The notes under the pieces are model-generated. The model ran no database searches. It had not been told where the DNA came from and was given only the letters and a program-made list of their open reading frames with translations. Positions 9,776-60,545 of a stretch of 64,000 bases of DNA are shown one piece after another. The stretch is taken from assembly GCA_050251055.1 (NCBI GenBank), contig JBFWNL010000013.1, positions 1 to 64,000 of the forward strand, in the 5' to 3' direction. The position numbers and the translations under genes were made by a program. Source of the stretch: Bacteriovoracia bacterium. Its GTDB lineage: Bacteria > Bdellovibrionota > UBA1018 > JBFWNL01. Each line of letters opens with the position of its first letter. The stretch's first letter is position 1.

Positions 9776-10798
9776 ATGGGAACGAATCAGCCTACGGGCC
9801 GTGGCGCGTCGCCGGGTTTTTCGATGGTTTCGGCGCTCGCGGCGCTCGGAGTTTCCGGTATCTTGGTGGCCGCGCTCACCAGCTCGCTCGATCTTTTTGG
9901 GCGGGTGAGCGCCAACGCCGGTGCCCACGTGAGCTTTGCTTCCCTGCGCACAACCTTGGATATGATTTTCCGGGATCCCCAGCTCTGTCGGGCCGGCCTG
10001 CGAACGTCCGACGGGGGATCTCGCCCGCATTTTCAGCCGGATCAGCCCGGCGATCAAGAAGTGGCGTCGGTTTATTTCGGTTCGACCCCGATCGCGTACC
10101 CCGGTATGCCCCTAGGGACAGCGCGTTTGATTGAAGTAGGGTTCGAACCGATGCCGGACGTAGCCCCGAGGCGCGAGGATGGAAGAATCACCTATTCGGT
10201 GCGCTTGCGTCTTCGCGCCAACAAAGGGATGGGGGCCGTGGGGATGCGCGAAATCTCCGCGGCCACCTCTCCTATCGTGCTCAATATCGTCACGGATGAG
10301 TCGACGCATGAAATCGAGAGCTGCCAGTCCACCGAGACTGCCCGTGGTTTATGCCGTTCGTTGGGATCGCAGTTTGACTGGCGTTGGGATACCCAGGCCG
10401 GGGCGTACGCGTGCCAGTTCGCTGGGGCTCCCTCAGCGGGAAGCGCGCTCCCGGGCCAATATTGTTACGCTCTCTACGCTCAACGCTGGAGCGCGACCTC
10501 TTGCGAAAGTGGCTACTATTTAAAGGGCTTGGTCAAAGCCACCGACAACGATTGGGACGGTTACGGCGGAATCTGCTGCTACGCCGGAACGGGCGCCGAT
10601 CCGCGGATGACTCCGGACGTCCAGGCCGCCATGTATGCTCGGCGCTACTACACGAGCGGTGATTCCTACGGGATAGTCAGCGGGACGCTCGGACAATCTT
10701 ACCGTGAACTGGTCACGCTTTGCCGCAGCCTGGGTCCCCGCAATAATCCGTTCGGATCCAAGCTTGTCACCTGTCCCGTTTTGGATTTGCTAGAGTGA
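9776..10798 (+). CDS. Prepilin-like protein with Cys-rich C-terminal domain
   Basis: G|FSMVSALAALGV class III-like signal (Ser rather than Glu at +5); DPQLC...EIESC module shared with paralogues. Confidence 0.7.
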   Translation: MGTNQPTGRGASPGFSMVSALAALGVSGILVAALTSSLDLFGRVSANAGAHVSFASLRTTLDMIFRDPQLCRAGLRTSDGGSRPHFQPDQPGDQEVASVYFGSTPIAYPGMPLGTARLIEVGFEPMPDVAPRREDGRITYSVRLRLRANKGMGAVGMREISAATSPIVLNIVTDESTHEIESCQSTETARGLCRSLGSQFDWRWDTQAGAYACQFAGAPSAGSALPGQYCYALYAQRWSATSCESGYYLKGLVKATDNDWDGYGGICCYAGTGADPRMTPDVQAAMYARRYYTSGDSYGIVSGTLGQSYRELVTLCRSLGPRNNPFGSKLVTCPVLDLLE

Positions 10799-31455: not shown

Positions 31456-31824
31456 ATGGGCAAAAAGCTGATTCAACGCGTGGAAAAGCCATGGGGCTAT
31501 GAACTGATCTGGGCACAGACGCAAGACTACGTCGGTAAGATCCTGCACATCAATAAAGGCCACAAGCTTTCGCTGCAGTACCATAAGGTCAAAGAAGAGA
31601 CGATTATGGTCTACAGCGGCAAGATGGCGTTCGTGTTTGAAAGTCCGAGCGGTGAAATGACCGAGATTGTTTTGAACCCCGGCGAAGCCCACCACATTCC
31701 GCCCGGAAAAAAACACCGCATGATCGCGCTCGAAGACTGTGACGTATTTGAAGTTTCCACTCCTCAGCTCGACGACGTGGTTCGCTTAGAGGATGGTTAT
31801 GGCCGAAACGTCGCCCAAAAATAA
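31456..31824 (+). CDS. Cupin (type II mannose-6-phosphate isomerase-like)
   Basis: VEKPWGYE, LSLQYH..KEET, HR, EVSTP.LDDVVRLED.YGR. Confidence 0.85.
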   Translation: MGKKLIQRVEKPWGYELIWAQTQDYVGKILHINKGHKLSLQYHKVKEETIMVYSGKMAFVFESPSGEMTEIVLNPGEAHHIPPGKKHRMIALEDCDVFEVSTPQLDDVVRLEDGYGRNVAQK

Positions 31825-32881
31825 TATCTATCTCGTAGTCATGGCCGGTGGCAGCGGCACGCGCTTCTGGCCAAAGAGCACCTCCAAGCGCCCCAAGCAG
31901 CTGATCCCGTTCCAAGACAAGGCCGAGCACACGCGCCGTCCGCGCAGCCTGCTCGTGCAGACTTTGGATCGCTTCGAAGAGTGGGTGCCGTCGAACCACA
32001 TGATGATCGTGACGACCGAATCGCTCGCGCCTGCGGTAGAAGACCAGATCGCGCGCGACGTGCGCGTGCTCGCCGAACCCCAGGGCCGCAACACGGCGCC
32101 TTGCGTGTACTGGGCCGCGCGGGAAATCGAACATCTCAATCCAAACGGCATCATGCTCGTGATGCCTTCCGATCACTTCATCACGCACATGGACGCGTTC
32201 ACGAAGACCGTGCAGATGGCCGCCGAACGCGCGGCGAAGCATGGCGAACTCGTGACTTTGGGCGTGAAGCCTACGCGACCCGAAACCGGATACGGTTATT
32301 TGAAAGTCGGTGACCCGATTGAAGGTGAATGCCGTAAGGTCGAAGCGTTCGTCGAGAAGCCTGACGCGAAGAAAGCCGAAAAATTCGTGTCGAGCGGTGA
32401 CTACCTGTGGAACGGCGGCATGTTCGTCTGGAGCGTGAAGAGTATCTTGGCCGCATTTGACGAATACCTGCCGGAATACCGCACGGCTTGGGACAAGGTT
32501 TCGGGCCACGTCGGTCGTGCCTATCCGGAACTCGCCGCCACTTCGATCGATTACGCGATCATGGAGCGCGCGAAGAACGTCGTGACCTATCCGCTGGATT
32601 GTGGCTGGGACGACCTGGGGAGCTGGGTTTCGTTCGATAACCGCGTGGGCGATCTCTGCGAGCGCACCGACGCGGGCATTGCGCTCTCGGGTAAGGTGAT
32701 CGGCATTGATTCTTCCGGTACCGTAGTGGACGCGCCTAATAAACTCGTCGCGCTCTTAGGCGTAAACGACTTGATCGTGGTTGAATGTAATGGCGCGATC
32801 CTCGTGGCGCACAAGGACCGCGCCCAAGACATTCGGCAAGTAGTCGATCGTGTGAAGAAGGCCCGGCCGGATTTAGCTTAG
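31799..32881 (+). CDS. manC: Mannose-1-phosphate guanylyltransferase
   Basis: MAGGSGTRFWPKS...PKQ, EPQGRNTAP, PSDH, PETGYGY, FVEKP, WNGGMF, SIDYAIME, GWDDLGSW. Confidence 0.93.
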   Translation: MAETSPKNNIYLVVMAGGSGTRFWPKSTSKRPKQLIPFQDKAEHTRRPRSLLVQTLDRFEEWVPSNHMMIVTTESLAPAVEDQIARDVRVLAEPQGRNTAPCVYWAAREIEHLNPNGIMLVMPSDHFITHMDAFTKTVQMAAERAAKHGELVTLGVKPTRPETGYGYLKVGDPIEGECRKVEAFVEKPDAKKAEKFVSSGDYLWNGGMFVWSVKSILAAFDEYLPEYRTAWDKVSGHVGRAYPELAATSIDYAIMERAKNVVTYPLDCGWDDLGSWVSFDNRVGDLCERTDAGIALSGKVIGIDSSGTVVDAPNKLVALLGVNDLIVVECNGAILVAHKDRAQDIRQVVDRVKKARPDLA

Positions 32882-33012
32882 CCCACCAAACACGTGTTCT
32901 ATCCGCGCCGACTGTGTCGGTGGTGACCCGTTAGTAAACGGGGGCGAACAACAAAACGGTGCATGTCTGCCCGCAGATAGAGTTTAAGCGCAGATTTCCC
33001 TATCCTGGTGAC

Positions 33013-34293
33013 ATGGGGAAATTATGGAAAAATATTTCATTTAAGACGGGCGGTTTTTCGCTCCTAGAAACGATAGTCACGATGGGCATCGCGACGTCCG
33101 TGGCCTATGCCATGATGAGCGCCCAAACGTATTTCCAACAAGGAATCGGCCATCAGGTGGATCGCTCAGAGTACTATTTGTTGCGCGCGGTGCTCAATAC
33201 GATGGTGGCAGGGTCGGGGGCGGAATGCGGAGCGATGTTCTATTCCCCGGCGGTAGGGAACCTGCCGATGGCGCCGGTACGGATTTCCGCCACGGGTTCG
33301 GCGAATTTTCCGCTCGAGATGGTGCGCGGCCCTTCGGGTTCGGTGAATGATGTCCTCGTGCGCCGGAGTCAAAGTCTTTCCAATTCCATGCGGATTAGCC
33401 AGCTTTCTCTCCAGCGTATCCAGACGATCAGCCCTAGCCGGGTCCGTCTCCGTCTGATCATGGACGGTGAACGCCAATTGCCCAACGGTGCGCGCGCCCT
33501 GGCAAGTTCGCGGGCGCCGATCGACTTCTACGCGCAACTGCGGCCGACGGGTGAAATCGACAGCTGCCAAGGCACGATCTCGGCGGGCGATTATATGTAC
33601 GCGTTTCACAGCCAAACAGCCACCGCTCCGGATTGCCCTTCTGGCTGGCAGGAGATGTGGAGCGGCTTTAGTTTTGCGGGTGGGATGGGCGGTAACGGCA
33701 GCCGCATGTCCCAGCAGCTTGACGATCCGGGTTCCTGTCTATCCGAGTTTCGAGGAATGCCCTTTGTGGAGTGTTCTATCTCGGGCGGGGGCCCGAACCG
33801 CGGGTATTGTGACTTAGAGACGAGTAACGACTTCAGTATGTGGCTCTCCACGGTACCGGATATCGATCAAGGCCCGATTATTGGTCCGGCCTCGACCGCC
33901 CTGATCCAGTCTCGCGTTAGCCGCTGTAAAGTTTGTGCGGGTCCGTCTCCGATTATCGCCATTCATAGCCAAACGACGACGGTCCCGGCTTGCCCGGCGG
34001 GATGGGCCGAGGTGCGGGCGCCGGGAGTAGGGGGGTACAGTTTGCTTGCCATGACGGGAGGAGATGGCGGGTCTAACCAAAATCTCAGCCGAATGGGCTC
34101 TTGCGTGGGAGAGTTTCGCTCTTTGCCTTTTATTGAGTGTCACGGCGATAACGGTCAAAACGCTCGATGCGACTACATGACGGGCAACGACTGGTCTTAT
34201 TACCTGTCTGCCCGAGACGGAAATACCGGGGCCCTGTTCGGCCCAAATGCACCTTCCATTGTTTCTAGGTGCAACGTCTGCGTTCGCCAGTAG
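33013..34293 (+). CDS. Type IV prepilin-like protein fused to a tandem collagen IV NC1 (C4) domain
   Basis: GG|FSLLETIV class III signal; C-terminal ~33592-34290 has two repeats of HSQT..P.CP.GW...G[FY]S...Q.L...GSC..EFR..PF.EC...C....ND.S..LS...VSRC.VC (6 Cys each). Confidence 0.88.
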   Translation: MGKLWKNISFKTGGFSLLETIVTMGIATSVAYAMMSAQTYFQQGIGHQVDRSEYYLLRAVLNTMVAGSGAECGAMFYSPAVGNLPMAPVRISATGSANFPLEMVRGPSGSVNDVLVRRSQSLSNSMRISQLSLQRIQTISPSRVRLRLIMDGERQLPNGARALASSRAPIDFYAQLRPTGEIDSCQGTISAGDYMYAFHSQTATAPDCPSGWQEMWSGFSFAGGMGGNGSRMSQQLDDPGSCLSEFRGMPFVECSISGGGPNRGYCDLETSNDFSMWLSTVPDIDQGPIIGPASTALIQSRVSRCKVCAGPSPIIAIHSQTTTVPACPAGWAEVRAPGVGGYSLLAMTGGDGGSNQNLSRMGSCVGEFRSLPFIECHGDNGQNARCDYMTGNDWSYYLSARDGNTGALFGPNAPSIVSRCNVCVRQ

Positions 34294-34308
34294 GTAACCC
34301 AAGGCCGA

Positions 34309-35490
34309 TTATTTGGTATGGCCCGCGCCTTTTTGCTCGTTGGCGGCGGCGATGGCCTTGGTAACGCGAAGGAGTTTGAAGGTCTGGACGAACTCGTCAC
34401 CCTTGACGGTCGTCACTACGTCGTCCGCACCTTTCATGCCCGGGGCGGAGGCGAGTCTCTGGGTCACGAGTTCGTTGAATTCCTCCAGACGGAACTGTTC
34501 TTTTCCGTTGGCGCCCAGCTCTTTTTTCCGGATTTCTCCGATATTGATCGTGACCACGCCGGTGGCCGCGTCTTTTGGATAGTTATTGATGTGTTTGACC
34601 ATCAAACCCATGATGAGAAACGCTTTGATGGAAACGTCCATGCGCTTGGAAGGTTCGACGAGATTTTGCTCGTTGGTGAAGGAGATGAACTGCTCGAGCA
34701 TTTCGAAGTCCTTCAGGTAGATTTTGTTCTCGCCGTTGGTGTCGGTCATCGCGAGGACGCCGACTTGAGCCAGCACGTCGAGCATGCTCGTGACCTTGGC
34801 CACCGGGACCTGCATGATTTGGTTGGCGTAGCGTTGCAGGAGTCCAACCCGAACCTCGGTTCCCGCGGCGGACTTTTCGCCGTAGCGCGCGGCCACGAGT
34901 AGAATCGCGCTGCAAGTTTTCAACACGTCCGACGTCCCTAAATAAATATAGTGAGCGCTGCGCTTACCGTCTTTCCCAACATCATATGACGTACTGGCGG
35001 TTTCAAGCTGGCGAATGCGCGTGCTTGCCGTGCGCATGCGGCCGACGACCGTCTTGAGCAAGAGCTTCAGCCAGTCGGGGATCTTCGTCATGGTGTCGGC
35101 AAACGTCTGCGACGAAACTTCCATGAGCTCGCAATTGGTTAGCGCTTCGGCCGAAGCGGAGCGAGGCTGGCCGTCAAGGAACGCGAGCTCGCCCAGGATT
35201 TGCCCGTTTCGGATGGTGTCGATCTCAATCTGGGCGTCCCCCTTCTTTTTGAAGATGCGGATCATGCCCGTGCGAAGGAGGTACATGGCGCGCGAGTTCT
35301 CGCCTTCGGCGAAAAGCAGCTCACCCTTATTGAGCTTGCGGATCTGATTGGGAGAGGCGGGCGCGGCGACGCCCATGGGCTTGGCCCCGGAGGAGGCCGG
35401 TGCCGTCGGGGCCGAAGCAGGCGCAGTGGTCGGGGTAGCGGTGGCCGCCGGCGCTGCTCCTGGTTTCGGTTGTGGCGCGTTCGCTCCCAT
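34309..35490 (-). CDS. Cyclic-nucleotide-binding (Crp-like) protein
   Basis: LFAEGE, MYLL..G, GELAFLDGQPRSASA; Pro/Ala-rich N-terminus. Confidence 0.85.
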   Translation of the reverse strand: MGANAPQPKPGAAPAATATPTTAPASAPTAPASSGAKPMGVAAPASPNQIRKLNKGELLFAEGENSRAMYLLRTGMIRIFKKKGDAQIEIDTIRNGQILGELAFLDGQPRSASAEALTNCELMEVSSQTFADTMTKIPDWLKLLLKTVVGRMRTASTRIRQLETASTSYDVGKDGKRSAHYIYLGTSDVLKTCSAILLVAARYGEKSAAGTEVRVGLLQRYANQIMQVPVAKVTSMLDVLAQVGVLAMTDTNGENKIYLKDFEMLEQFISFTNEQNLVEPSKRMDVSIKAFLIMGLMVKHINNYPKDAATGVVTINIGEIRKKELGANGKEQFRLEEFNELVTQRLASAPGMKGADDVVTTVKGDEFVQTFKLLRVTKAIAAANEQKGAGHTK

Positions 35491-35491
35491 G

Positions 35492-37846
35492 TTACTTGCT
35501 CGTCATCTTCCAGCTGCCGTCCCAGTCTGCTTCGGGCGGCTCTTGTTTAAATCCCTCACAACGCTCGATGTACATCGCGCAGGGGCCATCGGCTTCTTCC
35601 CTCACCCGGCGCAGTAAGTGATCGGCTTCTTGAAACTTGGCGATCGCGGCGTCCCAATCGCGTTGGCGATAAAGCGCGCGCGCCTCTTCGAACACTTTCA
35701 TGCCGGCCTCCGGCGCGTCGAAATCCATGAGCTGGATGAGCTCCACGGCGTCGTTCTTGCCTTTCACCTTCACGAAGTCCAAGGTTCGGTATTGGGGTGG
35801 TTTTTCGCCGCTGGCTTCGATCTGATCGATCGTGTTACGCGTCACTAAAATCGATGCGCCGTAGTACTTGGTCAGGCCCTCGAGGCGGGAAGCCAGGTTC
35901 ACGTGATCGCCGATGACCGTGTAGTTGAAGTTCGTCTTGGAACCCATGTTTCCGACGTTCACCATGCCGGTGTTGATGCCGACGCCGACCTGTACGTCGA
36001 TGCCGTATTCCTTCAGGTACTTCTCGTGATCGCGAATCAGGGTTTTTTGCATCTCGACGGCTGCCCGGGCCGCGTTCGCGGCGTGGGTTTTCTGATCGAG
36101 CGGCGCGCCCCAAAAAGCCATGACGGCGTCCCCGATAAATTTGTCGAGCGTGCCGTTCGTCTTGAAAACGATGTTCGTCATCGATCCCAGGTAGTCGTTT
36201 AGGAAGGTGGCCAGGTGCTTGGCGTCCATTTTCTCGGACATTGTGGTGAAACTGCGGATATCGGAGAACATGATGGACAGCTCTTTTTTATCTCCGCCCA
36301 GGGAAAGCTTGCTCGGATCCTTCGCGATGGTTTCCACCAGCGCCGGGGAAACGTACTTGCCGAACGCGCTTTTGATGAACTTCTTATCTTTCTCTTCCAT
36401 CACGTACTTAACGGCCAGCGTCAGCAGGAAGATGGCGAAATATTCGGTATAAAGAAGACTCGTATTCCAGTTGATGTTCTGGTTCGCGAAAAGCAGTTTG
36501 AAATCGATAAAGCCAAAGCCGCCGATGAAGGCGATGAAAAGCACGAGCGCGGGGACGGCTTCTAGTTTTTGGGTGTAGTAGGCGAACACCAGCGCGCCTA
36601 CGATCATCAAGGCGAAGATGAGAATGAAGGCGTTACCGACGGTCGTGTTGACCATGGCGTCGTCGCTTAGCAGGTTGTCCACGATGTTGGCGTGACCCTC
36701 TACCCCGGCAACGTTCGAATCAAAGGGAAAGGCGCGCATATCGTAGATGCCCAGAGCCGTGGGACCGACCAGCACCACGGCGTCCTTTAAAATGTCGGCA
36801 ACCGAAGCCCCCGCGGTAGCCGGGGTGGAGGCGAGCGCCCGGGCTTCGGGATTGTCCCGGCTTTCGAGCTCACGAAGCATATCGACGATGGAAACGTAGG
36901 GAAAGGTGCGACGGGGACCGCGGAAATTCACTTCCATCACCCCTTGGGGCGTGACGGGAAGGTGTCGACCGGACTTCTTGAAGGAGATCGCGCTCACTAA
37001 CATCTGATCGTTCATCTCGACTTGAATTTCTTCGTCCATGGCGACGCGAGCCGCTTCGAGGGCAAGCGTTGGAAAGGGTTTTCCATGGATCAAACGAAGC
37101 AAGGAGATGCGGCGCACGTACCCATCTGGATCCGGGTCCACGTCGAATGTTCCCGCGTAACGTGATGGATCCTGGAATATGGGAATATTTCCAAGCAGGG
37201 AGTAGACGCTCTGCAGTGGGGTTTTCGTGGGATCGAAATGAGCCGGCGCTTTGAAGTCCTGAATGGCGTACTTTTCAAACCCTTCGGGCACGATCGTCTT
37301 GTCAGGCTGGTTGACGATTCGGCATTCTTCGCTCGCGTCGTACGCCGGTTGGCAGTGGCCGTTGGCGGCCCAGCCTAGGATCATGTGATCGCGGTATTTC
37401 AAGATGGTGTCCGCTAAAATGGGATCGGTTTCAAAGGCGTGGGCCGCTTCGCCCAGACCCTTTTCTCCCAGAAAATTCTTCACCTCGTCCGAGGTGCGAG
37501 GATCGGGTTCCGGGAACATGATATCGAGCGCGACGACCTTCGCGCCCATCTTAAAGGCTCCGTCGACCACCATGCCGATCACTTCGCGGTGCCACGGCCA
37601 GCGTCCCAGGATTTCCAGCGAGTTGTCGTCGATTTCGAGCACGACGACTTTGTGTTGGGGTTTTCGGGGGCCACGCACCTGGAATTTCAAGTTGGTGAGC
37701 ATCCCGGAATAGGTGCGCACCCAGGGAAAGAGTTTTTCCCGGAGAAAGCTGTTCTGAAGATTCCCCAACTCACCTTGTTGCACGACATAGAATCCAAAGG
37801 TGAAGAGCAAAATGATGGGGATTTGGTACAACCAAAGCTTCTTCAT
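35492..37846 (-). CDS. CHASE2-domain class III adenylate cyclase
   Basis: IDD.SL..LGRWPW, DPDGYVRR, GVEGHAN, 3 TM, FSDIRSFT, DKFIGDAVMAFWGAP, TVIGD.VNLASRLEG. Confidence 0.93.
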   Translation of the reverse strand: MKKLWLYQIPIILLFTFGFYVVQQGELGNLQNSFLREKLFPWVRTYSGMLTNLKFQVRGPRKPQHKVVVLEIDDNSLEILGRWPWHREVIGMVVDGAFKMGAKVVALDIMFPEPDPRTSDEVKNFLGEKGLGEAAHAFETDPILADTILKYRDHMILGWAANGHCQPAYDASEECRIVNQPDKTIVPEGFEKYAIQDFKAPAHFDPTKTPLQSVYSLLGNIPIFQDPSRYAGTFDVDPDPDGYVRRISLLRLIHGKPFPTLALEAARVAMDEEIQVEMNDQMLVSAISFKKSGRHLPVTPQGVMEVNFRGPRRTFPYVSIVDMLRELESRDNPEARALASTPATAGASVADILKDAVVLVGPTALGIYDMRAFPFDSNVAGVEGHANIVDNLLSDDAMVNTTVGNAFILIFALMIVGALVFAYYTQKLEAVPALVLFIAFIGGFGFIDFKLLFANQNINWNTSLLYTEYFAIFLLTLAVKYVMEEKDKKFIKSAFGKYVSPALVETIAKDPSKLSLGGDKKELSIMFSDIRSFTTMSEKMDAKHLATFLNDYLGSMTNIVFKTNGTLDKFIGDAVMAFWGAPLDQKTHAANAARAAVEMQKTLIRDHEKYLKEYGIDVQVGVGINTGMVNVGNMGSKTNFNYTVIGDHVNLASRLEGLTKYYGASILVTRNTIDQIEASGEKPPQYRTLDFVKVKGKNDAVELIQLMDFDAPEAGMKVFEEARALYRQRDWDAAIAKFQEADHLLRRVREEADGPCAMYIERCEGFKQEPPEADWDGSWKMTSK

Positions 37847-56288: not shown

Positions 56289-58373
56289 CTAGCGGCAAAT
56301 CGGGCCCATCCAGTTGTGGCCACCTTGATCGCCCGGCGGATGGTAGGTGGTGATGCCCACCATGACCTTCCCGGCCGGACAGCTGAACTCCTGATGCCCA
56401 TCTTGGTTGATGTACAAACACGCGCCCGCCACCGACGTTGCCGGATTGGCGCAGCCGCGGGTGGTGGTGCCCGAACCCGGCGTCTCGCGCCATTCGACGC
56501 GACCGTTGTCGTTGGAGGCGACCAGCATCTTTCCCGCCGCTGGCATGCGGCTGGGATTGGCGGCGATGTGGGAAGCGTCCACGATGAAAACTTCCGAGTT
56601 GTTGTCCGCCGAGTTGCTGCGAATGACCATGCGTCCGGCTTCCTTGTTGGCGCCCGTGCGCGTGAGCGTGAACGATCCGTAGGATCCAACCGGATCGTTC
56701 CAGGCGTGCATCGAGATCTGACCGATGTTTTCCTTGTCGGCGAGCTTCACCGATCGCGTCTGCAGAGCCATGGTGTTCCCGCCGTCCGGGCTGCCCGGAA
56801 CCATGATGCCGCGGTTCCATAGCGTGACCAAGCTAACGTTCGGATTGTGCGAACCCAGCTCGATGTCGTTGCCGTGGCCTGCCAGGTAGCCTTGAAAATT
56901 ACCCAGGCTTGGCCCCTGGGTATAGATCGCGGTTTGGTTGCTGAAGCGCACTTCGCCGTCGACGTCCAAGTTAAAGCGGACGCTCGCCCCATTATTCAGG
57001 CGCGCGGTGCCGGCGACGGCGAGGTTTCGTCCCACGCTGAAATCGCGGCGCATATTGATGTCGCCGGTGGAGTGGATTTCCATGTTCACCCCGTAGTTCG
57101 CCGAATCCGGGCCGTCATAGGTTTCAAAATACAGCTTCGACGGCGTGGAGTTCGAGCTCCAGTTGCCGGTGGAGCGCGCGACCATGCGGAATGCGCTATC
57201 GGATCCACCCGGCGTGTTCATGGCTTTCGCCGTGTGGTCATCGCTGTAGTTAACGTTGCGGCCCGCGAAAGTGAGCATGCCCAGGATATCGCCCGCGCGG
57301 GTGAACTGCGTGCGGGTAGCGCCGCCGGAGCGCGGCCGACCCGCTGGAGTTTGATTGGTGTCCAGCGAAGGATCGGTTCGAGCCGCCGGATTTCCCGCAA
57401 GGGTACGGCCGAAGTCACCCAACGGAATGGGGTTGACCTCTGCCCGGAAATTCATGCGCGGGAAGAAAAAAGTCGAGTCACCCGTGGCTTTCAGATCCAA
57501 GGCGTGGAATGGAACAGTTTCCCGACCGATGTCCTTAGTGAGCCCGATCCCACCGGCCACGCTGAGCCAGCCGGCCGGATCCCCGGCGCGGGAGGCGTAG
57601 GCGTTTTGCACTTCCTGCACCGTCGAGGCGACGGCGAGACGAGTGAGCGAGCAACGTACCTGCGAGCTCGCGGCGTTGTAAGTCCCGCCGAAATCGCGGC
57701 AGATGTCGGCGGCCACGCTGCCTTGCGCGCCCGAGTTAGCGTTGGCGTAACAGCGGCCGATCGCCACCTGCTGGTTCACGTTTCCGGTTGCGGGCGTTTG
57801 CAAGGTGACGACAAAGTCTTGCTCATGATCACGCGGTCCCATGGCACGTGTGCTGTCGGGAGAGCGATCCTGCCAGCGCACCACGAGGCGGGCGAGTGCT
57901 TGCCGGTGCGCCACGCTCGTACCGCCGACGTCGATGTTGACGTTCGGCAACGCCGGCGCGCCGGCCATCGCGTTCAGTGACATGCCAGTGATGACGTATC
58001 CGTTTCCGGTCGGTTGAGAGACCGCCAAAGCCTGGGTACCCGCGAGGATCCGGTCCACGAAACCCGCCTGGGGGCTTGCGCCCGAGGTGCCGAAGTTGTA
58101 GGTAGCGGCGCCGTTACCCAAGCGCATGGCTTGACCGCAAAGATTTTCGTTCGATAGCACGTGCTGGATCTGCGACGAAACGATGTTGCGCTCGCTGACG
58201 TTGCTCGATTGCTTGAGCGCCTTTTGCGTGTTCGTCGACATGGTCGCGCTATAAAGCGCTAAACCCGCCATCAGGCTCGCGGCGACCATGAGCTCGATCA
58301 GCCCAAAGCCGTCGTCGTGATTTAAAGAAATGGAAAAAGGAGAACGCCCCTGCGAATGCCCCCGAAAACCCAT
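56289..58373 (-). CDS. Prepilin-anchored fibre/adhesin-like protein, paralogue A
   Basis: DG|FGLIELMVAA; pilin module; tail-fibre-like GDILGMLTFAG and short beta repeats; Cys-rich tip. Confidence 0.8.
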   Translation of the reverse strand: MGFRGHSQGRSPFSISLNHDDGFGLIELMVAASLMAGLALYSATMSTNTQKALKQSSNVSERNIVSSQIQHVLSNENLCGQAMRLGNGAATYNFGTSGASPQAGFVDRILAGTQALAVSQPTGNGYVITGMSLNAMAGAPALPNVNIDVGGTSVAHRQALARLVVRWQDRSPDSTRAMGPRDHEQDFVVTLQTPATGNVNQQVAIGRCYANANSGAQGSVAADICRDFGGTYNAASSQVRCSLTRLAVASTVQEVQNAYASRAGDPAGWLSVAGGIGLTKDIGRETVPFHALDLKATGDSTFFFPRMNFRAEVNPIPLGDFGRTLAGNPAARTDPSLDTNQTPAGRPRSGGATRTQFTRAGDILGMLTFAGRNVNYSDDHTAKAMNTPGGSDSAFRMVARSTGNWSSNSTPSKLYFETYDGPDSANYGVNMEIHSTGDINMRRDFSVGRNLAVAGTARLNNGASVRFNLDVDGEVRFSNQTAIYTQGPSLGNFQGYLAGHGNDIELGSHNPNVSLVTLWNRGIMVPGSPDGGNTMALQTRSVKLADKENIGQISMHAWNDPVGSYGSFTLTRTGANKEAGRMVIRSNSADNNSEVFIVDASHIAANPSRMPAAGKMLVASNDNGRVEWRETPGSGTTTRGCANPATSVAGACLYINQDGHQEFSCPAGKVMVGITTYHPPGDQGGHNWMGPICR

Positions 58374-58538: not shown

Positions 58539-60545
58539 TCACCGGCAGATCGGGCCCATGAAGTTATGTCCACCCTGGTCGCCGGGCGGGTGGTAACTTT
58601 GGAACCCAATCATGATTTTGCCCGCCGGACAGGTCACTTCCTGCATTCCGTCGTTGTTAATATACACGCAGGCGCCCGCGACGCTCACGGCCGGATTCGC
58701 GCAGCCGCGACTGGTGGGGCCGCTGCCGGGCATATCCCGCCACTCGGCCAAGCCTTGGGAGTTAGCGGCGGTGAGCACGCGGCCGGATTGGGGTTGGCGA
58801 TCCGGGTCCTCCGACATGTGTTGAGCGTCGAAGGTGAGCATTCGCGAGTTCGTCTGAGTCGAATCGGCGCGAATGACTAAGCGACCGGCGCGCGAGCCGT
58901 TCGAAGCCGGCCCCAGATACATGTAGCCGGGGGCGTTGTTTGGATCGGCCGGGTGAAACAAGGCGACGCTTGCGTCGGAGTTTTGGCCTTTTACCGTTAT
59001 GTTGCGAGTGCGAAGCGACAGGTTTTCATTCGTCGCGCGATTCCAGAGCGAGACGAGGCTTAGGTTTGGATTGTCCGATCCCAATTCGATATCGCCCCCG
59101 TGACCGCGCACGTAACCTCGGTGCGCGCCGCCGCCGTTGGGATTGGCGACGTTGTGGCTGAAGCGAATTTCTCCGTCGGTCTGCAGCTCACCCGAAGTGG
59201 TGGCAGGGTTACTGGTGGGCGTGCCGCGGACCTGGAGCGTGGGCGCAAAAACCGGGTTGGCGCCCGTGCCGATGGCCAGGCGTCGGCGTATGGTCGCGTC
59301 CCCGTTTGAGTCCACCGTGAAGTTAGTTTGCGCGGCGGCGCCCGAGCCGCCGCTATGCGACTCAAAAGACATGCGTGAGCCAGTTTGGTTGGCGGTCCAG
59401 TTGTTGATCGCATCGACGTTGATTGCAAACGCGCGGTCCGAGCTTCCCGGCGTATTCATCGCCAAGGCCGGCGCGGGCGTCGTCTGGTTTCGGCCCGAGA
59501 ATGCGATCATACCCAAGCGATCGCCAGCCCGGGTCAGCGGGTTGCTATTGGTGCGCTCATTGCGCAGATTGAGGCGCGGATAAAACGTCGCCGCCGTACC
59601 CGTGGCCTTCAAGTCCAAAGCGTTATAAGAGTTCGGCACGGCTGGGTTATTTCCCATATCCTTGTGAAGCTTCATCTCCCCGCCCAAGGTCATGTCGCCC
59701 ATCACTGACATGCTGTTTTGAATGCCCAGCCAACCCGTGTCTCCCGGTAGATGGGCGCTGTGTAGGTTTTGGATCTGGGCCTGCGTGCCCGCGATCGCGA
59801 GCTTTGTCATGCGGCACTTCACGGGCGTCGCCGCGGCATCGTAAACTCCCCCGAAGTCCTGGCAAACCTGCGCGGCCGTCGTGCCGGTATCGTCCGGGCT
59901 GAGGCTTGCGTAGCAGCGCGTGATCGAGGCTTGGGAGTTGATGTTGCCCGCCGCGGGCGCCTGCACGGTCAGGTAAAATTCCTGCTGGTGGTCCCGGGCC
60001 CCAGCCACGCGCGTACCGGCGGGCGAGCGGTCTTGCCAGCTCACGGTCATGTGAACCATGGCCTGGCGGTGCGTGACGATCACGCCCGGGCTCGTTTCGA
60101 TGTCGATGTCGGGCAGGGTGACTCCCGGTTGAGCCACGAAGGCGATGGAAGTGGCGGTGAAGGCGTTGGCGTTGGGTTGCACGGTTAGCAGCGGCGAGCT
60201 GCCCACGCGAATTTGGTCGACGAACCCGGCGCGCGGGCTGGGACCGCCGGAGCCGAAGTTGAACGTCGCGCTGCCGTTGGCATAGCGTAAAGATCCGCCA
60301 CAGAGATCCGGCTTCGAGAGAACGTGCTGGATTTGCGAGGAAACGATGTTTTTCTCGCTGACCTGGCTGGATGCTTTCATCGCCCGGTGCGTGTTCGTCG
60401 TCATGGTCGCCGAATAAAGCGCCAAGCCTGCCATCAGGCCAGCCGCGACCAGGACCTCGATCAGCCCGAATCCGCCATTTTTTTGTAGAAAAACTTGCCG
60501 TGGAAATAAAGGCGAGAGCGTCCGCCCCCGAATGCCCCAAACCAT
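58539..60545 (-). CDS. Prepilin-anchored fibre/adhesin-like protein, paralogue B
   Basis: GG|FGLIEVLVAA; collinear with paralogue A; near-identical tip HPPGDQGGHN.MGPICR. Confidence 0.8.
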   Translation of the reverse strand: MVWGIRGRTLSPLFPRQVFLQKNGGFGLIEVLVAAGLMAGLALYSATMTTNTHRAMKASSQVSEKNIVSSQIQHVLSKPDLCGGSLRYANGSATFNFGSGGPSPRAGFVDQIRVGSSPLLTVQPNANAFTATSIAFVAQPGVTLPDIDIETSPGVIVTHRQAMVHMTVSWQDRSPAGTRVAGARDHQQEFYLTVQAPAAGNINSQASITRCYASLSPDDTGTTAAQVCQDFGGVYDAAATPVKCRMTKLAIAGTQAQIQNLHSAHLPGDTGWLGIQNSMSVMGDMTLGGEMKLHKDMGNNPAVPNSYNALDLKATGTAATFYPRLNLRNERTNSNPLTRAGDRLGMIAFSGRNQTTPAPALAMNTPGSSDRAFAINVDAINNWTANQTGSRMSFESHSGGSGAAAQTNFTVDSNGDATIRRRLAIGTGANPVFAPTLQVRGTPTSNPATTSGELQTDGEIRFSHNVANPNGGGAHRGYVRGHGGDIELGSDNPNLSLVSLWNRATNENLSLRTRNITVKGQNSDASVALFHPADPNNAPGYMYLGPASNGSRAGRLVIRADSTQTNSRMLTFDAQHMSEDPDRQPQSGRVLTAANSQGLAEWRDMPGSGPTSRGCANPAVSVAGACVYINNDGMQEVTCPAGKIMIGFQSYHPPGDQGGHNFMGPICR

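Follow-up and report, generated by a model that had tools for sequence, protein, structure and literature searches.

A pilin-like protein of the Bdellovibrionota that carries a two-repeat collagen IV NC1 domain

The window analysed here is a stretch of 64,000 nucleotides (positions 1 to 64,000 of the forward strand of contig JBFWNL010000013.1, assembly GCA_050251055.1) from a Bacteriovoracia bacterium of the phylum Bdellovibrionota. At 33013-34293 it holds an open reading frame of 426 codons plus stop, uninterrupted as a preliminary description of this DNA had stated, in which a pilin-like module is fused to an NC1 domain. The gene lies between those for a ManC-type nucleotidyl transferase (31793-32881) and, on the reverse strand, a cNMP-binding protein (34309-35490), the two bacterial neighbours already named in that description, and no pilus genes adjoin it. 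The parts of the locus are as follows.

33013-34293, forward strand: whole open reading frame, pilin-like module fused to NC1 (426 residues plus stop, uninterrupted).
32959-33012, forward strand: in-frame upstream extension of 18 residues from an alternative GTG start.
33013-33054, forward strand: predicted leader peptide, residues 1-14, ending in GG, a class III (prepilin-type) signal with putative cleavage, from the sequence and the aligned leaders of 15 relatives.
33055-33210, forward strand: residues 15-66, with Phe+1, Glu+5, a hydrophobic segment and a long N-terminal alpha-helix (residues 17-66) in AF2 models.
33211-33588, forward strand: residues 67-192, the beta-rich part of the pilin-like module, in which the Cys pair C72 and C185 is conserved (strands 126-187 in AF2).
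33589-33942, forward strand: NC1 repeat 1 (C4, residues ~193-310), with HSQ at 199 and Cys 208, 242, 254, 266, 305 and 308.
33943-34290, forward strand: NC1 repeat 2 (C4, residues ~311-426), with HSQ at 318 and Cys 327, 364, 376, 386, 420 and 423.

The GTG at 32959 also opens the frame and would give a 32-residue leader, longer than that of any aligned relative; the ATG at 33013 gives one of 14 residues, resembling the leaders of the relatives, and the upstream extension is, by this comparison of leaders, probably not translated. The same protein is already present in protein collections, as P0002 with an internal start and as a letter-for-letter identical sequence in the ESM Atlas. Residues 13-19 read GGFSLLE and residues 180-185, at the end of the pilin-like module, GEIDSC; the HSQ motifs begin at nucleotides 33607 and 33964, and the last cysteine lies three residues before the protein end, all in agreement with the preliminary description. 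Its count of 12 cysteines holds for the NC1 part; the whole protein has 14, with C72 and C185 in the N-terminal module.

We then examined the C-terminal region, for which a collagen IV NC1/C4 signature had been proposed. Indeed, the Pfam C4 family (PF01413) matched the protein in two stretches at E 3.1e-56 and 188.8 bits, against a cut-off of 27, and a six-frame search of the genome scored the repeats separately at 104.4 bits (33595-33939) and 90.5 bits (33952-34284). A phmmer search against PDB chains returned single collagen IV NC1 chains at E values of 1e-32 to 1e-51 (best 2.5e-51), and identity to animal NC1 over this part of the protein is 34-40%. Each repeat contains six cysteines and an HSQ motif, and the cysteine columns are invariant or nearly so among 28 rows. 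The NC1 fold was likewise recovered by structure prediction: the AF2 model of residues 190-426 has block pLDDT values mostly above 80 (range 67-97), and Foldseek superposed it on solved NC1 structures at TMt 0.85-0.87, with an rmsd of 2.4-2.8 Å, 36% identity and E about 1e-23. Among the matches listed, all those up to rank 42 were collagen IV NC1, and rank 43 had an E value of 0.015. The two halves of the domain are 43.6% identical to each other here, against 30.6-42.9% in 26 eukaryotic rows. As had been noted, no Gly-X-Y helix is present; the longest such run is 3, and the Pfam Collagen model gave no match. Sequence and predicted fold agree that the last 235 residues form a genuine NC1 domain of two repeats, in which none of the 12 cysteines is missing.

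The columns of the animal Arg of 'ASRND', of the Met-rich loop and of the Lys of 'TLKAG', which we take to be Arg76, Met93 and Lys211 of animal NC1, hold Ser, Ile and Phe in this protein. They have no conserved residue across 12 bacterial rows, and the sole Lys in the NC1 of the present protein is K306. In the available part of PMC5395295, Met-93 and Lys-211 are described as the sulfilimine pair of animal NC1, and ctenophores are reported to lack the sulfilimine and chloride-switch residues as well; since ctenophores do without them too, these residues do not define NC1.

The preliminary description also took the domain to be trimerising, a claim that stands as a prediction. For the NC1 homotrimer the prediction gave ipSAE values of 0.90, 0.90 and 0.89, against 0.01 for the best of three controls. 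The mark used was calibrated with two copies, not three; of 30 proteins solved as one-chain pairs 20 reached it, as did 1 of 23 whose structures are of single chains. The runs agreed in at least 82% of contacts, with partner pLDDT of at least 81, and the predicted interface pairs N-subdomain residues 226-269 with C-subdomain residues 345-417. The NC1 module may accordingly be modelled as a head-to-tail homotrimer, with a score that perhaps reflects the model's memory of solved NC1 trimers. The protein resembles collagen IV NC1 (PF01413; PDB 1li1, 1m3d, 5nay, 5nb0) in its two C4 repeats, its 12 cysteines with HSQ in each repeat, its predicted fold, its end a few residues past the last cysteine and its predicted head-to-tail trimer. 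It differs from collagen IV in that a pilin-like module, instead of a Gly-X-Y helix, precedes NC1, and in having Ile, Phe and Ser at the columns of the sulfilimine Met and Lys and the chloride-switch Arg.

For the N-terminal region a class III signal, GG|FSLLE, had been claimed, and this was upheld for the motif, not for a profile match of this copy. The sequence has a 14-residue leader, G|FSLLE and a hydrophobic stretch, all kept in relatives, but Pfam N_methyl (PF07963) remained below its cut-off (13.1 bits against 21.2, E 0.075), the profile search gave no TIGR02532 match, and GspI matched weakly, at E 0.17, far below the family cut-off. Among 25 relatives, N_methyl matched ten and TIGR02532 seven at E of at most 0.01, and the minor-pilin models ComGE, GspI, PilV and GspJ matched five, three, two and one, respectively. 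The leader alignment showed that Phe+1, Glu+5 and Gly-1 are preserved across distant relatives; a short leader, the pattern G|F/V/L-S/T-L-hydrophobic-E and a hydrophobic helix were found in all genome copies examined except three, all from one genome (G261). C72 is conserved in at least 90%, and C185 in all, of 25 aligned rows. In AF2 models the module is a helix-plus-sheet unit of ~175 residues (block pLDDT 79-96 for residues 15-66, and 80 for strands 126-187). A Foldseek search with this model against the PDB gave no match at E of 0.001 or below and no pilin, the best matches being SnoaL-like rolls. The AF2 models contain two separately confident parts, this module and NC1, which as a Pfam domain is familiar from collagen IV, and the protein has the composition by which modular pilins are defined in the available part of PMC8179133, namely an N-terminal pilin module joined to an independently folding module whose kind is not peculiar to pilus biology.

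We also searched the genome for related modules and for filament machinery. It encodes two Peptidase_A24 prepilin peptidases (C10:126798-127121 and C3:234349-234651), eight T2SSE ATPases over cut-off and four secretins, and so several machineries for type IV filaments; one secretin gene adjoins that of a GspE-type ATPase on contig C2, which has small pilin-like open reading frames at 313353-315286. When ten NC1 loci with 134 open reading frames were compared by blastp at 1e-5, the NC1 genes were the only cross-locus matches. The HMM built for the N-terminal module is 370 positions long, of which only the first ~184 are the pilin module, so matches were counted by coverage: 49 of 19,944 frames matched at E<0.01, and 22 cover the module to position 160 or beyond. 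About 22 open reading frames with differing C-terminal regions thus have the module in common, up to about position 184. Of ten such paralogs scanned, six matched N_methyl at E of 0.01 or below. The genome has a single frame with Peptidase_S74, a domain that acts as trimer chaperone in fibres, and this frame is one of the paralogs scanned.

The suggestion of a bacterial reservoir of NC1 was confirmed, with PF01413 present in 8 of 401 sampled genomes of the phylum and in many metagenomic clusters; within the order it was found in 5 of 116 genomes, and in none of 14 control genomes. Seven further genomes have the pilin-NC1 fusion, 20-32% identical, as do dozens of metagenomic clusters, which share only 20-30% identity with one another. 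Other bacterial NC1 domains sit behind plain signal peptides or membrane anchors, according to N-terminal classes (pilin, TM/secreted, collagen, unknown) that were assigned by regular expressions with some errors; P0040/G261c and P0072, for instance, are plain membrane anchors that had been flagged as pilin. Since three NC1 genes of G261 and many metagenomic ones show no pilin motif, the domain evidently functions in bacteria without such a carrier. A scan of genome contigs with two short peptide patterns confirmed only a 357-bp contig in an unrelated Glycocaulis assembly, which looks like contamination, and is uninformative on taxonomic range because it missed known relatives too. A viral vector found no support, as none of 36 pattern matches in a viral-contig scan was confirmed and Foldseek against BFVD gave no match at E of 0.001 or below.

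In the NC1 tree, the collagen-bearing (animal) sequences form one cluster and the bacterial ones lie outside it. In a tree of half-domains the bacterial N and C halves intermix, unlike the animal N/C split, and a tree keeping all N halves together was rejected (ΔlnL 323, p-AU 1.1e-9), a comparison made after the free tree had been seen. Rooting by the internal duplication failed, the bacterial halves being intermixed. Both trees come from 'quick' IQ-TREE searches and have many open forks and long bacterial branches; they leave aside the NC1 protein MvCN of Ministeria vibrans, and for the half-domain tree 18 long-branch or near-duplicate rows were removed and 26 of 69 collagen-bearing or unclassified rows were used. 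These trees suggest that bacterial NC1 is an ancient and varied family, and they make recent acquisition from an animal unlikely. The eukaryote-to-bacterium transfer considered in the preliminary description thus loses its recent form, and an ancient transfer is compatible with the data in either direction.

The 34-40% identity to animal NC1, and a contig such as that of Glycocaulis, could raise the suspicion of animal contamination, a chimeric assembly of a pilin with collagen IV, or a very recent transfer from an animal. However, the GC content of the gene is 0.58, within the 0.55-0.60 of the contig, and is 0.581 and 0.579 on the two sides of the pilin-NC1 junction. Positions 32800-34500, which include this junction, are covered without difference by single, separately assembled contigs of 13,259 and 27,526 nucleotides from two runs, which belong to one study, possibly the source itself. 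Furthermore, a paralog with the same architecture is found on another contig (C6) of the same genome. As to taxonomy, 10 of the 12 organism-named RecA matches (83-87% identical) name Bdellovibrionota lineages. Chimera and contamination were thus ruled out by GC content, spanning contigs, the paralog and the occurrence of the fusion in relatives' genomes. The position of bacterial NC1 outside the collagen-bearing cluster, and bacterial half-domains that do not obey the animal split (AU p 1e-9), likewise speak against such an origin, to which we assign next to no probability; to the extent that sequence data can settle the matter they refute it, and on these data the gene is native to a bacterial genome.

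The gene probably encodes a modular minor-pilin-like protein of the Bdellovibrionota, whose NC1 trimer would cap or initiate a type IV filament and be displayed at its tip. After Sec insertion, prepilin peptidase would cut after Gly14, and the NC1 modules would fold and oxidise in the periplasm to form a head-to-tail homotrimer as in collagen IV. By analogy with CofB, this trimer would set three pilin modules in register and cap or initiate the filament, presenting NC1 at the tip as a binding or bridging surface, whose likely target, given the predatory phylum, would be another cell or a surface. Any tip-to-tip pairing would have to use a different mechanism, since the animal cross-linking and chloride-switch residues are absent. 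A point against this reading is that an NC1 trimer, ~7 nm wide, would be a tight fit for a secretin channel.

The protein could instead be a membrane-anchored trimer, periplasmic or on the cell surface, that never enters a pilus, its helix acting only as a signal-anchor or contributing to a stalk of three helices that the NC1 trimer keeps in register. Such an arrangement would account for an NC1 gene unlinked to pilus genes and without conserved synteny, for a module that Foldseek does not see as a pilin, for the relatives in which NC1 follows ordinary membrane anchors or signal peptides, and for some 22 module proteins in one genome, far above the usual minor-pilin sets. We nevertheless consider it rather unlikely, because Phe+1, Glu+5 and Gly-1 are kept in distant relatives, which match N_methyl, TIGR02532 and minor-pilin models, and because the genome has prepilin peptidases and filament machineries. 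Less likely still, the protein would belong to a type II secretion-like system, as a pseudopilin-type component or as its cargo, and NC1 would stay periplasmic at a pseudopilus tip or be cleaved free. The C2 secretin, its GspE-type ATPase and the small pilin-like frames of that contig are consistent with such a system, as are the GspI match of this protein and the GspI and GspJ matches of relatives (3 and 1 of 25), but these matches are all far under the family cut-offs, the NC1 gene lies on another contig than the C2 cluster, and its size and architecture are unlike those of GspH-K.

The preferred reading, a tip-displayed minor pilin, has several counterparts among known systems. More than 1,200 modular pilins in 264 architectures are described in PMC8179133, which expects their modules to be exposed at the tip; as in Streptococcus sanguinis PilB with its vWA module, a small class III pilin module is followed by a bulky functional module, and a pilin with an S74-type peptidase, such as the one in this genome, is listed in the part of that paper available. 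The graft here is instead NC1, not named in its main text so far as available (its Dataset S1 may list it), and the present gene is an orphan outside pilus operons. CofB and TcpB (PMC6048534; PMC5207764), in the parts of these reports available, also join a pilin module to C-terminal beta-rich domains and form a trimer at the tip with a binding site at the interface; in a type IVb pilus, assembly starts from the CofB homotrimer, which also caps the filament (PMC6048534). Their C-terminal fold, an H-type lectin, is unrelated to NC1; moreover, CofB is encoded in its pilus operon, and its trimer is experimental, whereas that of the NC1 protein is predicted.

Within the same phylum, the MAT fibres of Bdellovibrio bacteriovorus, as presented in the available text of PMC10769870, offer an analogy: they make up a large family of paralogs in which the N-terminal carrier is conserved and the trimeric C-terminal tips can be exchanged. 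These fibres have a trimeric beta-helix and a variable tip, some of them have S74 chaperones, and they serve prey recognition. Their carrier is a signal peptide with a ~130-residue beta-rich domain, in a text where 'pilin' does not occur, whereas the carrier here has a prepilin motif; the two carriers are likened by description. The present data point to numerous pilin-module proteins with swappable C-termini in the Bdellovibrionota, a large family that may serve as a second, pilin-borne recognition repertoire beside the MAT fibres.

Our literature search found no description of a bacterial pilin-NC1 fusion, although its novelty may be affected by supplementary material, namely Dataset S1 (PMC8179133) and the supplementary figures accompanying the 2021 bioRxiv report. 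In the literature found, as far as its available text goes, NC1 is treated as an innovation of animals and one filasterean. The latter, Ministeria vibrans, has in MvCN a non-animal NC1 with the HSQ motif; according to the part of the report available (bioRxiv 10.1101/2021.10.08.463732), BLAST searches by its authors matched the N-terminal non-collagen domain with bacterial proteins only, three of which are named there. Unlike the present protein, MvCN is eukaryotic and has 81 Gly-X-Y repeats. We tentatively entertain, as possible rather than probable, that NC1 originated among bacterial predators like the Bdellovibrionota, as a tip or cap that trimerises by itself and is carried by proteins of the pilin-like, membrane-anchored or secreted kind, and that it later passed to a unicellular ancestor of animals, in which it was joined to Gly-X-Y repeats. 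The data allow this because bacterial NC1 is more diverse in sequence and architecture and lies outside the collagen-bearing cluster, because its half-domains are undifferentiated into the animal N and C types, and because MvCN, the sole non-animal eukaryotic NC1 in print as far as the available sources go, has a bacterial-like N-terminal domain. The evidence also permits an ancient eukaryote-to-bacterium transfer, after which the bacterial copies would have diverged fast, with gene conversion between their halves.

In animals, NC1 determines which three chains come together, starts the triple helix of collagen IV and links protomers into the networks of basement membranes. In the bacterium it represents a new cargo among modular pilins, and as the bacterial NC1 proteins are small and free of collagen, NC1 assembly could be studied on them. 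The existence of a diverse prokaryotic family makes the origin of NC1 testable, including the direction in which it moved between bacteria and eukaryotes, and raises the further questions of its ancestral, collagen-free function and of trimerisation, hexamerisation and chloride dependence before animals. If the bacterial origin were true, animals would owe to bacteria the module that nucleates collagen IV and basement membranes.

The NC1 gene is an uninterrupted open reading frame of 426 codons:

33013-34293, plus strand, NC1 gene (pilin-like module followed by NC1)

Its product has a polar leader of 14 residues, the last two being Gly-Gly, and then FSLLE and a hydrophobic stretch of about 20 residues, as in the class III signal GG|FSLLE of the preliminary description, which had also correctly placed the two tandem HSQ repeats (residues 199 and 318, nt 33607 and 33964) and the end of the protein three residues after the last cysteine. 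The total of 12 cysteines given there holds for NC1, and the whole protein has 14, including C72 and C185. The proposed identity with the collagen IV NC1 domain was confirmed by the Pfam C4 model (PF01413), which matched two stretches with E 3.1e-56 (188.8 bits, cut-off 27), and by a phmmer search of PDB sequences, which returned collagen IV NC1 chains only (single chains, E 2.5e-51 to 2.5e-32). The Gly-X-Y helix is absent as described, the longest Gly-X-Y run in the whole protein being 3. We also modelled the whole protein with AlphaFold2 from a 28-row alignment (mean pLDDT 71.6). The model has a helix at 17-66 and three long strands at 126-175, with a region of low confidence between them (67-125), and in most blocks of its NC1 part (190-426) pLDDT exceeds 80. 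Foldseek of this model against the PDB yielded 42 matches at E<=0.001 (rank 43, E 0.015), and the rows shown through rank 42 are all collagen IV NC1 entries, the best with E 1e-23, TMt 0.85-0.87, rmsd 2.4-2.8 Å and 36% identity. The identification of the domain as NC1 is secure.

We then considered whether the gene is native to the genome or an artefact of assembly. The flanking genes are bacterial, as reported earlier for manC and the cNMP-binding protein gene. A SPOR protein, a cupin and ManC are encoded on one side; on the other are genes for the cNMP-binding protein and for an adenylate cyclase with CHASE2. The latter two lie immediately downstream of the NC1 gene and convergent to it, and may form a cyclic-nucleotide signalling pair:

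34309-37846, minus strand, near-abutting genes for a cNMP-binding protein (393 aa) and a CHASE2 adenylate/guanylate cyclase (784 aa)

On the other side, the 131 nt that separate the start of the NC1 gene from the stop of manC contain a short inverted repeat, CCGAC-TGT-GTCGG, at 32905-32925, with no T run after it. The contig (C13) belongs to a 3.77-Mb genome of 21 contigs (93.5% complete, 0.7% contamination), and the GC content of the gene (0.58; pilin part 0.581, NC1 part 0.579) falls within that of the contigs (0.55-0.60). A chimeric pilin–NC1 junction had been raised as a possible objection; in two public DNA runs, both labelled landfill metagenome, from one study and possibly the source of the assembly itself, 32800-34500 is covered without difference by one contig per run (13,259 and 27,526 nt), and the junction is therefore spanned. 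Furthermore, contig C6 of the same genome encodes a 440-aa paralog of like architecture, with a leader, G|FSFLE, a body and two C4 repeats. The best named relatives of the genome's RecA share 83-87% identity with it, 10 of the 12 organism-named matches listed being Oligoflexia, Bdellovibrio, Bdellovibrionales or Bdellovibrionota, and an ESM Atlas lead is consistent with this placement. We regard the gene as securely native. A separate NC1-like fragment (38% identity to the query), the only content of the 357-bp contig VJOU01000350.1 in the alphaproteobacterial assembly of Glycocaulis profundi, is probably contaminating eukaryotic DNA.

A six-frame search of whole genomes for PF01413, with the window's own genome included in all counts, gave positives in 4 of 61 relatives, 5 of 116 genomes of the order, 8 of 401 genomes of an even phylum sample (8 of 336 high-quality ones), and none of 14 control genomes. 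When the ORFs of all positive genomes were examined, pilin-type NC1 genes were found in G037, G042, G067 (two, convergent), G357, G414 and G024, other genomes of the phylum. Their products share a short leader, Gly, then F/V/L-S/T-L-hydrophobic-E/S/Q and a hydrophobic helix, followed by a body that varies between proteins (150-330 residues), and each ends in two C4 repeats. Tandem arrays occur at three loci:

G024 contig C77, 5986-12784 (L052), four divergent pilin-NC1 genes
G024 contig C7, 5982-11168 (L053), three divergent pilin-NC1 genes
G261 contig C20, 7984-13043 (L054), three NC1 genes adjoining two divergently oriented pilin-like genes

The G024 array proteins (520-620 aa) include some with Pro/Thr-rich linkers and extensions C-terminal to the last Cys. 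G261 is an exception to the pilin pattern, as two of its genes encode only a signal peptide and NC1 (about 270-285 aa), and the third a membrane anchor, a body and NC1 (496 aa). The NC1 proteins of positive genomes share no more than 20-32% identity with the window's copy, and no conserved gene neighbourhood was found among 10 NC1 loci compared. A bacterial NC1 profile built from 16 members and scored against 1.84 billion cluster representatives matched 4,284 at E<=1e-3, 716 at <=1e-10 and 210 at <=1e-30, the weak tail probably being driven by the pilin N-terminus; 10 metagenomic NC1 clusters checked were all singletons or doubletons. The fusion of pilin and C4 suggested for a prokaryotic search recurs in both genomes and cluster representatives, and membership of the gene in a bacterial family is secure.

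The N-terminal 196 residues, folded alone with 24 relatives, gave pLDDT 80, with a helix at 17-66 and strands to residue 187; in the module alignment C72 is kept in at least 90% of rows and C185 in all. Foldseek against the PDB found no significant match for this module, pilins included, the top matches being SnoaL-like alpha+beta rolls (E about 0.05). In most solved pilins the N-terminal half of the helix is missing, and this may partly account for the lack of a match. Pfam N_methyl scored 13.1 bits on the NC1-gene product, below the threshold of 21.2, and matched 10 of 25 NC1-family members (best E 1.8e-7); TIGR02532 matched 7, and minor-pilin models also did so (ComGE 5, GspI 3, PilV 2, GspJ 1). 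At the family level there is good support for a prepilin N-terminus, and the genome encodes filament machinery, with two A24 prepilin peptidases, eight T2SSE-family ATPases and four secretins. A module HMM found 49 of the genome's 19,944 open frames at E<0.01; in 22 of these, 250-950 aa long, the match extended as far as about position 184, the point at which NC1 starts in the window's copy. Three further module-bearing ORFs fall inside the window:

9776-10795, plus strand
56292-58373, minus strand
58542-60545, minus strand

These proteins (340-694 aa, module HMM E 1e-10 to 3e-8) carry G|F-S/G-M/L-V/I-E/S, and their C-terminal regions have no Pfam match. N_methyl was found at E<=0.01 in 6 of 10 module paralogs scanned, and one paralog is the sole S74 ORF of the genome:

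contig C2, 443744-446113 (L059), plus strand, 790 aa, module with Peptidase_S74

N_methyl scores 21.2 bits on its prepilin-type N-terminus, and its C-terminus carries a Peptidase_S74 domain (E 4.6e-20), the 'chaperone of endosialidase', an intramolecular chaperone typical of trimeric fibres. The protein resembles a pilin-based version of the trimeric fibre proteins of phages or of the MAT type. Since many ORFs share the module, NC1 is one of many C-terminal cargoes in this organism. We infer that it may be displayed at the pilus tip, in an adhesive or bridging role.

A trimer of residues 190-426 was modelled as a ring, in which the N-subdomain (226-269) of each copy contacts its neighbour's C-subdomain (345-417), with ipSAE of 0.90, 0.90 and 0.89 (best control 0.01), at least 82% of contacts agreeing between runs, and partner pLDDT of at least 81. 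Among proteins of solved structure, 20 of 30 that are pairs of one chain attained the same mark, and 1 of 23 that are single chains did so. Because NC1 trimers have already been solved, this result may stem from the model's memory of them; the score shows likeness to those trimers rather than binding, and trimerisation of the product is predicted only. In the 28-row alignment, the columns of the animal 'ASRND' Arg, Met-rich loop and 'TLKAG' Lys hold Ser, Ile and Phe in the window's copy and no conserved residue across 12 bacterial rows, the last two columns being taken as Met-93 and Lys-211; the sole NC1 Lys of the window's copy is K306. According to Fidler et al. 2017 (PMC5395295), the sulfilimine pair Met-93/Lys-211 is missing in ctenophores.

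The preliminary description had offered eukaryote-to-bacterium transfer or a bacterial reservoir as the origin of the domain. From the top 150 matches, earlier matches and genome copies we collected complete NC1 domains, 132 in number and none identical to another, which a heuristic divided by N-terminus into 56 with Gly-X-Y runs of at least 5, 36 prepilin-like, 27 with another hydrophobic segment and 13 unclassified. In a quick, unrooted maximum-likelihood tree, 55 of the 56 collagen-bearing rows fell in one 64-row group (SH-aLRT 90), and the non-collagen rows lay outside it, on long branches scattered over an unresolved backbone; P0043, another of the NC1 rows, was closest to the window's NC1 (47% identity). 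When the N and C halves of 48 bacterial and 26 eukaryotic NC1s were placed in one tree, 22 of 26 eukaryotic N halves formed one group and 22 of 26 C halves a separate one, while bacterial halves were intermixed, and in several bacterial proteins the two halves were sisters. A tree with all N halves together, a grouping chosen after the free tree was seen, was rejected by the AU test (ΔlnL 323, p-AU 1.1e-9). N-to-C half identity was 30.6-42.9% in eukaryotes, 43.6% in the window's copy, and 43.8% at the bacterial median, reaching 94-95% in two proteins; the C4 halves of the metagenomic non-collagen proteins P0071, P0072, P0003 and P0092 are 73-95% identical, indicating recent internal duplication or gene conversion. 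As judged from sequence, the trees, the AU test and the half identities argue against recent import from a crown animal, and show a long independent bacterial history, in which internal duplication or gene conversion occurred repeatedly. A bacterial reservoir of NC1 does exist, and recent animal import is disfavoured; as the trees are unrooted, an ancient transfer between bacteria and eukaryotes may have gone in either direction.

In agreement with the preliminary description, which knew of no such system, full-text searches of the literature gave no description of a bacterial NC1 domain or pilin-NC1 fusion, although Dataset S1 of a modular-pilin survey (PMC8179133) might list it. Passages of a 2021 preprint (10.1101/2021.10.08.463732), Fidler et al. 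2017 and the 2025 version of a preprint on COL4A origins confine NC1 to animals and Ministeria vibrans, and a 2025 collagen IV biosynthesis review leaves bacterial NC1 unmentioned. A precedent for trimer-forming C-terminal domains on a pilin is CofB, described as having homotrimerising C-terminal domains and as starting and capping its pilus (PMC6048534), and the MAT fibres of B. bacteriovorus, described as having trimeric tips that can be exchanged on a carrier which is conserved (PMC10769870), provide one for such tips within the same phylum. We file the NC1 gene product as a variant among the modular pilins, with a cargo domain so far treated as animal-specific. The finding of a pilin-like NC1 protein in a bacterium is real and unusual, and its value lies in the questions that it raises about how collagen IV arose.
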